A DNA stretch of 64,000 bases from Nitrospinales bacterium (lineage in GTDB: Bacteria > Nitrospinota > Nitrospinia > Nitrospinales > JAJDAT01), in NCBI GenBank assembly GCA_046757665.1, contig JBHHYO010000006.1, forward strand, positions 822 through 64,821, in the 5' to 3' direction. The notes beneath the pieces were generated by a model. That model worked only from the letters and a program-made list of their open reading frames with translations, was not told the origin of the DNA and ran no database searches. Both the position numbers and the translations under genes were made by a program. Below are positions 10,670 to 58,319 of the stretch, one piece after another; position 1 is the first letter of the stretch; each line of letters starts with the position of its first letter.

Positions 10670-11126
10670 CACACCTACCCCCGCAAGGCCATTTACCGGT
10701 TAGACTTCAAAGCGTTCCGCCTCCGGGACCCTGCACGCCGCGCATTATATAGGGGGATAAGAGCATTTGGAGGCAGGAACAAAGAGCCGGAGACCGGAGG
10801 CTGGAGACGGGGACCGGAAAGGCCGGGGAAACCTTTGTGCCTTCACGGTGATTTCAACATGGTAAATTTTAATCTTCAAAACGCAACCCTCGGCATAGTA
10901 AAATACTTATTTACAACTCGTTTTAAATCATATAGATACAAGTCAAAAGATGATCCGGGTTTTGGGGGCTTTTTCCGCGAAATTCGTTGATTTTTTACCT
11001 GACGGAAAACCGGGGCAACAGGTCGCGGTGCAAGGGGTTGTGGGGTTTGTGGGCTGACGTTTCGACTATTTCGTTCCTCGTTTTTCAAAAAAAATTTTTT
11101 CGTGAAAACCGGCTCCAGTCAGGCGC
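10670..11126. repeat. Bipartite ~460-bp non-coding element, copy 1 (nearly empty)
   Basis: Left arm about 10670-10830 and right arm 10846-11126 align with 56994-57120 and 57893-58171. Confidence 0.85.
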
Positions 11127-11172
11127 AACCGGCAACACAGGCGTTCACAAGAGGGCCACGGTGGCGGGCCGG

Positions 11173-12297
11173 TCAGGGGGAGCCGTCCGTCTCATGGGGG
11201 ATGGTGAAGTGGAAGGTCGTGCCCTTGCCGACTTCCGATTCAAACCAGAATTTCCCCTGATGATGTCCCTCGATGATGTTGCGGCAGGATAACAGCCCCA
11301 GCCCGTTGCCGTCTTTTTTAGTGGTCAGGGATTCCTTCATCAGCAGGTGCCGGATTTCCTCGGGAATTCCGCAACCGTGATCGACCACGCTGACGCGGAT
11401 GTGCCGGTCTTCGTCTTTAACCAACACCTCGATGCGGCCGCCGTCTTTGGTGACGTAGCCGGCATTGATGATCGTGTTTTGCAGGACCCGCTTGATGTCC
11501 AGATAATTGAAATAACCCTTGGGGATTTCGTTCAGCGGTTTCATCTCCACGTGCTTGCCCTTGAGGTATTTATGGCAGGAAATCTGCTCGATGGTTTCGG
11601 CGATCAACTCCAGGATGTCGGCGCTTTTTTTGTGATACTCGATCTTTATTTTACGGGCGTGGCTCAAACTGTGATTGACCATGGTGGTCAGGTTTTTTCT
11701 GACGATGGTCGTGATTTCAAAACTTTTTTCCAGGTCCGGGAGGCCCTCGTGTTTCTGCTGGCCCTGCTGGGCTCCCAAAAAAGATTCGATCAAATCCTCG
11801 ATGTACATTTCGACGAGGCCCAGCGGCGTCAGGCAGTTTTTTATGTCGTGGGTGAAGATGTTAACTTTTTGCAAGTCGTCCGCCATGACGTCGAGGTCGT
11901 TTCTGATTCTGCTGGACAAGGTTTTGACCATGGAAATGAGCGCCCTGGGTTCGTTGGCCAGGTAATCGTTGAATTCCGTTTCCCGGATTTCCATAAGCAG
12001 GGTGTCGTTCACCGCCTTGGCGGAGGCGGAGCGTGGTTTCGATTCCAGCAGAGACATTTCCCCCAAATATTGTCCGGGGCCCAGCGTTGCGATTTGCTTG
12101 ACACCCTTGGAAACGATGATTTCTCCAGAAAGGATCAGGTACATGGATGTTTCCAGCGTTCCTTCTTCAAACAGCGTTTCCCCCGGTTCCAGGGCGATCT
12201 CATTGCAGTGTTCGCACAACCGCATCAAGGTCTGCTCGCTTAAAACCTGCAACAGGTCAACCGACTGTAAAACTTTAATTTTTTGATCACGGTCCAT
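11173..12297 (-). CDS. cNMP-binding-domain sensor histidine kinase (cytoplasmic)
   Basis: GEMSLL..PRSASA cNMP fold, HDIKN H-box, D.GCGI and GNGLGL boxes; start at MDRDQK. Confidence 0.88.
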   Translation of the reverse strand: MDRDQKIKVLQSVDLLQVLSEQTLMRLCEHCNEIALEPGETLFEEGTLETSMYLILSGEIIVSKGVKQIATLGPGQYLGEMSLLESKPRSASAKAVNDTLLMEIRETEFNDYLANEPRALISMVKTLSSRIRNDLDVMADDLQKVNIFTHDIKNCLTPLGLVEMYIEDLIESFLGAQQGQQKHEGLPDLEKSFEITTIVRKNLTTMVNHSLSHARKIKIEYHKKSADILELIAETIEQISCHKYLKGKHVEMKPLNEIPKGYFNYLDIKRVLQNTIINAGYVTKDGGRIEVLVKDEDRHIRVSVVDHGCGIPEEIRHLLMKESLTTKKDGNGLGLLSCRNIIEGHHQGKFWFESEVGKGTTFHFTIPHETDGSP

Positions 12298-12386
12298 GGG
12301 TTGTCCCGGTTCGACCTCGCAAGGTCCGCCGGAGCGGCGGAGGGTCAAGGATAGGAAATCCTAACATGTAATCAATTGATTTTCAA

Positions 12387-24117: not shown

Positions 24118-24190
<73 letters not shown>

Positions 24191-56993: not shown

Positions 56994-58171
56994 CACACCT
57001 ACCCCCATTGTCTTTTCAATCTGCCGGATCAAAAGGGTTTCCGCCGCCGCATACCTGCATTTGGCGTTATATGTAAGGGATAAAAACGGAGACCGGAGAC
57101 GGGAGGCCGGAAAAGCGGGGTAATCCATTAAGCTATCGTTTTTCATTCAGGGACAAGCATAAGCGCCATCGAGTGTATGAGATCGAGAGCCAATCGTTCT
57201 GTCTGGCCTGCGCGCATTTTGGTGTTTGCACAACGTCGAGAACCGGCAGGCGCATCAGACGGCTCGAGCACGAAGACACCAAGCTGAAATTAGAGAAGCA
57301 GTACCAAACAAGCGAGAGCCAGGCCATTTACAAACTCAGGAAAGCAAGAGTGGAGCATCCCTTTGGTCATATAAAGCGCAATTTGGGAGTCGGAGCCTTT
57401 TTGCTCAAAGGTCTCGACGGAGTCAAAGCGGAGATGGCGCTTCTGTCGAGCTGTTTTAACCTGTCACGGATGATCACCTTGCTTGGAGTACCAACGCTGG
57501 TCGCCAAGTTATCGGGATAAAGGGGGATGGAAACCCCGCATTCCTCTAAAAAAAACAGGCCCGGTTAACGAAGATAACGCTTAATCGGGTCGAAAAAAGG
57601 TTGGATTAAGAACGGCGTCTGTTTTGACCAATCCATATTTTCAAAAACGCTACCTCCGCTTTTTTTAATCCTGTTGTGACACAGCCTGAGAGCGTGGGAA
57701 CGAGGGGGAACAAGAGCGCGGCGCGTGGGAACGAGGATGCGAAACGTGGATGGGAACGAGGAAAGAAAAATCCCCTAAACCTCCTCCCTTGAAGGGGGCT
57801 TTTCTGTGTCTATCTGTGTCCCCTTCGACAGGCTCAGGGCAGACATCGGTGGTTCAGTTTTTTTGCTTTTCTTTGCGCCCTTGGCGGCTTTGCGGTGATT
57901 TCGGCATGGTAAATTTTAATCTTCAAACGGCGGGGTTCGATATACCAAAACGCATTTTTGCAAATCATTTAAAATCATACGGATAAAAGACAAAATGCGA
58001 TCCGGTTTTTGGGCCGTTTTGCCGCGAAATTCGTTGATTTTTACCTGACCGCCAGCCGGGGAAACGGCTTGCGGCGCAATGGGTTGCCGATTTTGCTACC
58101 TGACGTTTCGACTATTTCGTTCCTCGTTTTTCAAAAAAAAATTTTTACGAAAATCGGCTCCGGTCAGGCGC
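56994..58171. repeat. Bipartite non-coding element, copy 2 (about 770 bp between the arms)
   Basis: Left arm 56994-57120 and right arm 57893-58171 homologous to 10670-11126. Confidence 0.85.
57119..57687 (+). mobile_element. IS1182-family remnant: 3' part of transposase plus right inverted repeat
   Basis: GNPLSY...C..C..FGVCT...Y.LRK..VEHPFG.IK..LG...F.L.G...V..E..L....FNL (stop 57520); terminus ttgtgacacagcct at 57674-57687. Confidence 0.8.
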
Positions 58172-58200
58172 TGTCATGGTTCGACGGGCTCACCATGACA
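58172..58200. repeat. REP-like hairpin abutting the right end of the element
   Basis: tgtcatggt-tcgacgggctc-accatgaca; shares the ttcgac.ggctca core with 57821-57843. Confidence 0.7.
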
Positions 58201-58319
58201 GGAATGCGGGCGGGCTCGGTCAGGCCCCGGTCATGTCTGCCGAAGGGCTTTGCATGAGAGGGACGCTCAACCGGCAGGTCGTGAAGGGGGTGGTTTCGGG
58301 TTTTTGTTCGTGTTGGGGG

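Follow-up and report, generated by a model that had tools for sequence, protein, structure and literature searches.

What kind of element is a non-coding stretch that occurs twice within one piece of bacterial DNA, once nearly empty and once loaded? The question comes from a 64,000-nt stretch of a Nitrospinales bacterium genome (GenBank assembly GCA_046757665.1, contig JBHHYO010000006.1), hereafter the window, in which an initial annotation made from the letters alone described a bipartite element of ~460 bp at positions 10670-11126, noted a second copy near 57-58 kb, and proposed both as a candidate platform for DNA capture. The window is contig C6:822-64821 of the genome we call G000 (window position = contig position minus 821), which totals 2.97 Mb in 160 contigs, is 97.6% complete, and breaks exactly at repeats. 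We find that this genome holds a family of ~30-40 non-coding modular repeats, and that both stretches in the window are members of it. A left arm (L, ~110 bp) and a right arm (R, ~290 bp) frame a variable interior in each unit.

A genome-wide repeat family

The resemblance between the two stretches holds up. A hand count had put the identity of 10846-11126 and 57893-58171 at ~80%, and the alignment gives 79% over 281 nt (row G000:C6:58714-58992), with no differences between copies 1 and 2 in the three blocks quoted as invariant. The left arm is also common to both copies, as proposed (nhmmer, E=1.4e-13 for 10672-10809 and E=4.2e-32 for 56996-57109). "Present twice", however, is true of the window only. 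A single-sequence nhmmer search of the genome with R returns 35 matches, 30 of them longer than 220 nt, and the profile search returns 42, i.e. the 30 long copies and 12 short fragments that lie mostly at contig ends. L has 41 profile matches genome-wide. Compared in pairs, 21 full R copies are 68-89% identical (median 77%), and two R subfamilies are evident in the alignment.

The public runs in which the window is present are DNA runs only, labelled hydrothermal vent metagenome, and they also carry the repeat at high depth: summed contig depth is ~15 over the unique flanks and climbs to 614 where R begins, which shows that the repeat is not an assembly artefact. Contigs of three runs over copy 2 consist of fragmented repeat pieces with joints from other copies, and no listed piece covers the stretch from end to end. 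In the genome itself, contigs that start or end inside L or R include C69, C76, C93, C139, C25, C110, C123, C153, and C158. The many contig ends inside the arms indicate that the family is a main cause of assembly fragmentation and that the genome probably has more than 30 copies in reality.

The family is restricted to this lineage. R was found neither in the 40 relatives searched nor in any of 119 further genomes from the phylum, and L is likewise unmatched in the 40 relatives. Plasmids and phages (distant BLAST) and viral and genome contigs (exact 21-mer) give zero R matches, and the same exact 21-mer finds two contigs of one metagenome among metagenome contigs. A literature search of article texts returned no match to two invariant R strings and no paper linking Nitrospinota to intergenic repeats.

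Unit architecture

A same-strand L lies upstream of R in 25 of the 30 long R copies. Among the five exceptions, three R copies are at most 180 nt from a contig end and two have a 5'-truncated R, while 15 L matches have no paired R, several of them at contig ends. Complete units (n=22) measure 497-1229 bp (median 695) and have sharp ends, starting with (CCGA)CACCTMCCCC and closing with CGGTCAGG. CCTGAC occurs twice in forward orientation in R, and GTCAGG stands at the end of R and again at the end of the tail; this second GTCAGG closes a tail of 47-92 nt in 21 of the 22 units, and unit C2:19254 stops at the first. There are at least four tail sequence types, each ending in CGGTCAGG, and by reading these cut across the R subfamilies.

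In L, the conserved core closes with CATACCTGCA-N8-GCTATAT(A/G)TAAGGG, after which come 2-5 heptads of GGAGACC or GGTTGGC type. This heptad array sits directly after the TATATA box (e.g. window 10785-10815 and 57089-57112), and its copy number varies between units and between orthologs.

No target duplication is detected across the 22 units (mean flank-to-flank longest common substring 3.05 vs. 2.81 +/- 0.16 in permutations), and no terminal inverted repeat (TIR) is apparent on reading the listed unit ends, with a weak CC(T)GAC resemblance by eye only. The absence of a common reading frame and of a target duplication, both claimed initially, is borne out by computation, and that of a TIR by reading.

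All units sit between open reading frames (ORFs). On a crude longest-ORF map, the strands of the upstream and downstream genes relative to the unit are same/opposite in 6 cases, opposite/opposite in 6, same/same in 6, and opposite/same in 4, with 8 units missing a flank. This lack of bias argues that R is not the leader or promoter cassette of particular genes.

Simpler arrangements also exist. At G000:C126:5626 (-) and the ~230 nt downstream, L is joined straight to a tail-type module ending GGTCAGG, with no R (by reading), and the post-L module of many units shares GGGCTGA(A/C)C...ATCAA...GCGCAAT with the longest tail type (by eye). Together, these observations suggest that a simpler element of L and tail may have taken up R, or that some units may have lost it. 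At G000:C53:91-330 (+), a truncated L lacking the TATATA box is found directly upstream of a putative HicA/HicB toxin-antitoxin pair (by reading).

Inter-arm modules

The gaps between the arms range from 27 to 774 nt (median 202, 25 units) and are pieced together from a small set of GC-rich palindromic modules that may face either way. One kind has inverted arms of ~32 bp, the right one lying against R; the others are a 104-bp module, a palindrome resembling repetitive extragenic palindromes (REPs), and a hairpin-bearing module. By profile counts, the P centre has 18 genomic sites with 12 inside the 25 units, the REP-like palindrome 31 with 12 inside, the G module 27 with 5 inside, and the 104-bp Q module 96 with 9 inside. 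The non-arm parts of the 25 units sum to only ~7.6 kb, so the modules, which occur elsewhere too, are strongly concentrated in units. The gaps fold well (mean z -2.76, n=17).

This organization corresponds to the mosaics known from REPs and bacterial interspersed mosaic elements (BIMEs): the TGTCATGGT..ACCATGACA palindrome is present in both orientations, in gaps and in tails, and the same is true of P and Q. The TGTCATGGT..ACCATGACA palindromes are common in the genome despite no gene for a REP-associated tyrosine transposase (RAYT) having been found in it. The separate 104-bp repeat has inverted ends (GTCATTGCGAGG...CTCGCGATGAC; e.g. in the gap of C2:19254), and it is this repeat that gives the 96 profile matches.

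The module with ~32-bp inverted arms (GAACCGCAAAGGCGC.AAGGGCGCAAAGAAAA) has a centre of ~90-110 bp that lies in either orientation between loci, as at C1:5686-5828, C39:6887-7036, and C95:8636-8783. It may be a palindromic MITE (a miniature transposable element with inverted repeats) inserted both ways, or an invertible segment.

Sequence constraint in the right arm

R differs from its genomic surroundings in composition (41.6% GC vs. 54.8% for the genome) and contains long invariant boxes. Of its 277 alignment columns, 125 are the same in all 21 copies; the longest stretch of such columns is 17, compared with 6.6 after column shuffling, and the dispersion index of substitutions is 5.1. Four TTTCG-type boxes recur within the invariant blocks (by eye). 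Short A/T tracts had been described as kept in register, and this is confirmed: AA/TT dinucleotides in R have a period of 11.5 bp (mean z ~6 vs. dinucleotide-preserving shuffles) in both subfamilies, which persists without the 3' A/T run. We take a period of ~11 bp to be a mark of bent DNA. The signal is weaker in the central segment, whose sequence differs by subfamily (z 2-3.6 at 11.5-12.5 bp). By reading, the A-to-T switch falls at varying points of the 3' A(n)T(m) run, whose total length stays at 13-14.

A predicted site for integration host factor (IHF), AATCAACGAATTT, is found at the same position in 16 of the 22 R copies scanned, on the minus strand and after an A6 tract. The pattern scanned was WATCAR-N4-TT[A/G/T], with the last base relaxed, which we assume to represent the IHF consensus. 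IHF-like motifs had been noted before, but the better site is AATCAACGAATTT, at 10980-10992 on the minus strand in copy 1. Of the IHF, gyrase, or Pol I binding expected of REP/BIME elements, R thus offers a predicted IHF-consensus match (16/22) and phased A/T tracts only.

The two matching metagenome contigs belong to a related organism, with 82-89% nucleotide identity in long syntenic segments. One of them carries a complete unit at the site orthologous to the C15|C129 junction, with flanks 88-89% identical. Here the two R sequences differ at 4 of the 150 columns that are invariant among paralogs, compared with 11 of the 58 columns classed as intermediate and 16 of the 72 classed as variable; in the neighbouring gene, 15% of third codon positions differ, and the gap of the orthologous unit differs by whole-module insertions and deletions. 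Because box columns are nearly unchanged and the rest is drifting, the boxes appear to be under purifying selection at that locus.

Coding and RNA potential of the right arm

No ORF is shared among R copies, the longest ORFs (19-76 aa) differing in strand and frame, and the substitutions have no codon periodicity (3.01, 3.47, and 3.55 mismatches per phase). A small protein was considered and rejected: one frame is open in several subfamily-A copies and is interrupted or shifted in others. Along this subfamily-A frame, changes are mostly nonsynonymous, while stretches of 17-19 nt have zero synonymous change.

Searches for RNA structure were also negative. Rfam gives no R match at gathering score in the window, nothing significant at E<=10 over copy 1, and nothing recurrent at 12 loci; the comparison with Rfam that had been suggested thus matched no family, HEARO/omega-type RNAs included, and no TnpB-type gene was found. 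For 22 copies, the RNAalifold energy of the plus strand is -8.9 kcal/mol, with 2 of 32 pairs compensated and a covariation term of -0.55; for the minus strand it is -11.1 kcal/mol, with 1 of 18 pairs compensated and a term of -0.01. A scan of all R column pairs for covariation retrieves subfamily-linked pairs only, and the R core has no excess folding energy over dinucleotide shuffles (mean z 0.06, n=21). The initial annotation had offered either a bent nucleoprotein site or a long structured RNA. Phasing, invariant boxes, and the fixed IHF-like site favour the first of these, and the missing covariation and the z of 0.06 speak against the second.

An RNA could nonetheless act without structure, and R may have an RNA role through its primary sequence, a point that counts against reading it as a DNA site. 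The fullest version of this idea is a multi-copy noncoding RNA (ncRNA) gene, in which L would be a non-sigma-70 promoter ending GCTATAT(A/G)TAAGGG, the transcript would run through the modules into R, and the boxes would be linear RNA motifs that bind protein or base-pair with targets. The arrangement of the arms agrees with it, because R occurs only downstream of a same-strand L, apart from copies that are truncated or at contig ends, and L also occurs alone; indeed, the fixed L-to-R order is likewise what a promoter function of L for R would lead one to expect. Independence from neighbouring gene orientation is what a self-contained transcription unit would have, and box conservation at the orthologous locus, single as it is, would reflect selection on each copy.

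Evidence for the promoter itself points the other way. A sigma-70 consensus scan of L and an intrinsic terminator scan of the unit end find nothing conserved, and L is unlike the TTGACA-N17-TAnAAT promoters upstream of the tRNA genes of this genome (by reading). Five of the nine unpaired L copies read (C101, C1, C53, C55, and C31) face the start of a same-strand gene, as a promoter would, but this is chance level. A search for a phage-type RNA polymerase was without match, although the control genomes gave none either. Given also that neither strand has conserved structure or covariation, we consider an ncRNA gene unlikely though credible, and the same applies to a role of the boxes in binding protein or pairing with targets as RNA. 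Resemblances to sigma-54, ECF-type, and T7-like promoters, seen by eye, were rejected since the spacing does not fit, and resemblances to dif/Xer sites and DnaA boxes were considered by eye and dropped.

History and possible mobility of the units

On the second related contig, a unit adjoins the ortholog of a C25 gene, at a place that in our genome is a 270-bp repeat-free spacer (L035:10626-11187 vs. G000:C25:19340-19613). That unit carries three consecutive tail modules, each terminated by GGTCAGG, and the spacer precedes a putative uroporphyrin methyltransferase gene (by reading).

Within units, the distances among L arms do not correlate with those among R arms (Mantel r=0.10, a value reached by 586 of 5000 permutations), so that coinheritance of the two arms as one lineage, which we had considered, is not seen. 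Together with tail types that cross R subfamilies, this suggests that modules were reassorted, or that R entered L-bearing elements repeatedly.

One could see in these data a purely selfish nonautonomous transposon with no host role, whose boxes would be the sites needed by a transposase acting in trans. Its confinement to one lineage (none of 119 phylum genomes, no plasmid, phage, or viral-contig match), the sharp ends, the one presence/absence difference between related organisms, and the CTGAC-type motifs in both orientations near the 3' end would all suit such an element. It fits poorly, however, with longest invariant blocks that are internal rather than terminal, with the lack of an apparent TIR and of target-site duplications (TSDs), and with the failure to find a candidate transposase or young copies (maximum identity 89%). 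Furthermore, boxes are kept at the orthologous locus while variable segments drift, which selection for transposability alone does not predict. We hold this explanation to be decidedly improbable. The signature of a MITE is lacking as well: no TIR is apparent, there is no target duplication, and no matching autonomous insertion sequence (IS) was found in the genome.

Search for a cognate enzyme

Searches of the genome found no Y1 transposase (PF01797, RAYT; the control was positive in 6 of 14 genomes) and no reverse transcriptase (RVT_1), TnpB-type Zn-ribbon, or Cas1 gene. They found one IS110-family gene, on a contig without units, and three tyrosine recombinases, which score as XerD, a XerC-like protein just under the model cut-off, and a phage-type integrase; on integron-integrase models, these recombinases score far below the cut-offs. 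A recombinase or transposase next to some copies had been suggested as something to look for, and we find no recombinase adjoining any unit and no transposase gene beside any L or R match. An autonomous IS with matching ends, as a MITE would have, was not found in the genome either, the IS remnant in copy 2 being unique and internal.

These results bear on the original proposal of a capture platform. In its fullest form, the arms would make up an attP-, attI-, or CRISPR-leader-like site, with a site-specific enzyme placing foreign DNA in the space between them or at GGTCAGG. Several of its premises hold. There are more than two copies, inter-arm content varies, and no Rfam family or known IS end matches, the opposite outcomes being those that the initial annotation had named as fatal to it. 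The interior spans 27-774 nt and includes an IS remnant; the tail types share the end CGGTCAGG, are not tied to one R subfamily, and stand three in a row in the related contig; and R would resemble an intasome site, being AT-rich and having tracts in phase, a box like that of IHF, and short motifs that recur. The content is nevertheless wrong for capture. An insertion point between the arms was predicted, and this part is indeed variable, but it holds the genome's own small repeats, also found outside units, and one decayed IS, and no foreign genes or spacers; this amounts to nested insertions and clustering of the sort familiar from composite repeats of bacteria. With no Cas1, no integron integrase above cut-off, no recombinase beside a unit, and no cassette or repeat-spacer array after R, no machinery was found either, and ~30 sites per genome with 1-3 short modules each are unlike any known capture system. 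A capture platform is very improbable in our view.

The two copies in the window

Copy 1 is on the plus strand and begins with a diverged member of the L family (10672-10809; profile match C6:11493-11630, placed in an alignment of 31 L copies). It opens with CACCTACCCCC, followed by CCCTGCA..N8..GCATTATATAGGGGGA and heptads of GGAGACC type. The gap of this unit (C6_11658) is 27 nt long (10810-10836) and belongs to the shortest gap class. R follows at 10837-11123 (profile E=3.7e-85), a subfamily-A copy with an AT-rich core, invariant boxes, and the end AGTCAGG. It contains the predicted IHF site on the minus strand (10980-10992), with the A6 tract before it on that strand. The first forward CCTGAC box (10998-11003) is invariant in the 22-copy alignment (columns 200-205), and the second forward CTGAC box (11053-11058, GCTGAC in this copy) opens the longest invariant block. 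The order of two forward CTGAC motifs and one inverted at the end was correctly recognized from the start, and a further inverted copy closes the tail at 11170-11177.

Copy 1 therefore does not end at 11126, as annotated, but extends to 11177 through a tail module (11124-11177) that finishes with CGGTCAGG, for a unit length of 506. An ORF for a cNMP-binding histidine kinase (Pfam; 11173-12348, minus strand) has its stop codon at 11173-11175, inside the terminal CGGTCAGG, so that the element supplies the end of the frame as currently read.

Copy 2, also on the plus strand, comprises L at 56996-57109 (self-BLAST repeat depth 23-33) and a gap of 774 nt (57110-57883), the longest seen, which contains a unique IS remnant and repeat modules. 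The inter-arm distances had been given as ~15 and ~770; the values found are 27 and 774 nt. This long gap has a DDE transposase remnant nested in it (57173-57520, plus strand; DDE_Tnp_1_6, E=4.8e-16), of which only the C-terminal 115 aa remain, covering profile positions 30-125 of 125; its repeat depth is 0, with no other genomic copy. A P-type GC-rich palindromic module (57766-57883, plus strand), consisting of centre and right arm, abuts R, has a repeat depth of 4-29, and recurs in other gaps. R of copy 2 (57884-58168, E=4.7e-88) is again of subfamily A and ends GGTCAGG. The tail module (58169-58224) consists of the REP-like palindrome TGTCATGGT..ACCATGACA (58172-58200) and then GCGGGCGGGCTCGGTCAGG, the 3' end of a unit of 1229 bp.

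Elsewhere in the window, a tRNA gene (24118-24190, minus strand) is the sole Rfam match at gathering score, and a GlnD-like protein has its best relatives in Nitrospinota (49-51% identity).

Interpretation

Taken together, the family probably consists of lineage-restricted composite repeats of the BOX/BIME/NIME type (the last being Neisseria intergenic mosaic elements), whose arms would be sequence-constrained, bent, protein-binding DNA. Each unit has a fixed order and orientation, running from L through a short heptad array and a variable stack of palindromic repeats to R, and usually on to a tail that ends in a second CGGTCAGG. R would most likely act at the DNA level, as suggested by the A/T phasing, the conserved boxes, the IHF-like site, and the lack of RNA structure: on its TTTCG-type, IHF-like, and CCTGAC boxes a bent nucleoprotein complex would form, with GC-rich modules prone to hairpins on its flanks. 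The family may have arisen and spread as nonautonomous DNA without an enzyme of its own, and the inter-arm space and the tail would be preferred places for other small repeats to land or recombine. Protein binding and bending by R, past mobility, and the way in which modules entered are deduced here from sequence patterns.

Several points weigh against this interpretation, in addition to the possible RNA role and the arm order discussed above. The IHF site, like the binding and bending of R, is a prediction from motif and period. Box conservation was compared at a single orthologous locus. Mobility is represented by one presence/absence case with one junction visible, as the contig ends inside the unit, and a deletion in our genome would account for it just as well. 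With a maximum R identity of 89%, there is no sign of recent movement. Finally, no transposase, recombinase, or reverse transcriptase able to move the units was found, and, since the assembly is fragmented, this absence is not proof.

A different role can be imagined, in which the host keeps the units (~35 in 2.97 Mb, or ~1 per 80 kb) not as relics but for chromosome architecture. Each would provide 290 bp of superhelically phased A/T tracts, and an IHF-type bend and fixed boxes for a predicted dedicated DNA-binding protein, set between hairpin-forming GC-rich palindromes, could form a supercoil-domain barrier or a gene-to-gene insulator. We regard this as rather improbable. In a variant of the same idea, R may be an enzyme-less element that homes one way into the repeat L, leaving neither TIR nor TSD.

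The family accounts for breaks in the assembly (12 R fragments and several L matches are at or near contig ends) and flags ~20 kb of intergenic DNA where gene callers would place spurious ORFs. Purifying selection on long boxes without RNA structure, as it appears from one ortholog comparison, is unusual for such repeats and makes R a candidate architectural protein-binding site. No new mechanism is demonstrated and no long-standing question is opened by these data.

Comparison with known systems

BOX elements have boxA and boxC ends and variable internal modules, and the end modules of Streptococcus suis measure 115 and 133 nt (PMC3049150). The same paper describes BOX ends as having IS-resembling inverted repeats with a predicted stable stem-loop, and pneumococcal repeats as clustering and inserting into one another. 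The units resemble BOX of S. pneumoniae (boxA-boxB(n)-boxC) and of S. suis (boxE/boxF) in their distinct end modules, fixed order, and variable interior, all of which are found here. They are also alike in having tens to about a hundred intergenic noncoding copies that cluster with small repeats and have nested insertions (PMC3049150). By contrast, there is no sequence similarity to BOX, no TIR is apparent in our units, and R lacks excess folding (z 0.06). The interior here mixes several palindromic repeats that are unrelated to one another, in place of a single module repeated in tandem, and R is far larger (~290 bp) and AT-rich, its A/T tracts being phased.

BIMEs combine palindromes into mosaics to which proteins bind (PMC2817692). 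As in the BIMEs of enterobacteria, the units are extragenic and combine GC-rich palindromes in alternating orientation with other motifs. One BIME subtype binds IHF, through an IHF site with flanking palindromes, a layout that the predicted site here would share. BIMEs are, however, ~100-300 bp long, occur in hundreds of copies, and contain RAYT-linked REPs, whereas no Y1 transposase is found in our genome; neither L nor the 290-bp arm with its invariant boxes has a known counterpart in BIMEs.

With Correia elements and NIMEs of Neisseria, the family has in common abundant intergenic repeats and mosaics (PMC3049150). Correia elements are given there as at most ~156 bp with 26-bp inverted repeats, unlike units of 0.5-1.2 kb without an apparent TIR. 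The arms described here also invite comparison with systems in which IHF has a part. Correia elements carry an IHF site and promoter elements, and lambda attP is an AT-rich site of ~240 bp where short protein boxes at fixed spacing and IHF bends yield one nucleoprotein complex. By analogy with attP, R would work as a multi-box bent site if our preferred reading of composite repeats with protein-binding arms is right. The two differ in that attP is single-copy, lies beside an integrase gene, and has a core crossover, while R is present in ~30 copies with no adjacent integrase and no identified core.

In kind, then, the element is ordinary, and the family itself is previously undescribed. That it is a new family and not a named one follows from the lack of any sequence match, from the negative outcome of the TIR, TSD, and RAYT tests, and from a 290-bp AT-rich arm without counterpart. 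With it, an uncultured lineage of Nitrospinota adds a member to the small set of modular composite repeats formed by BOX, BIME, and NIME.

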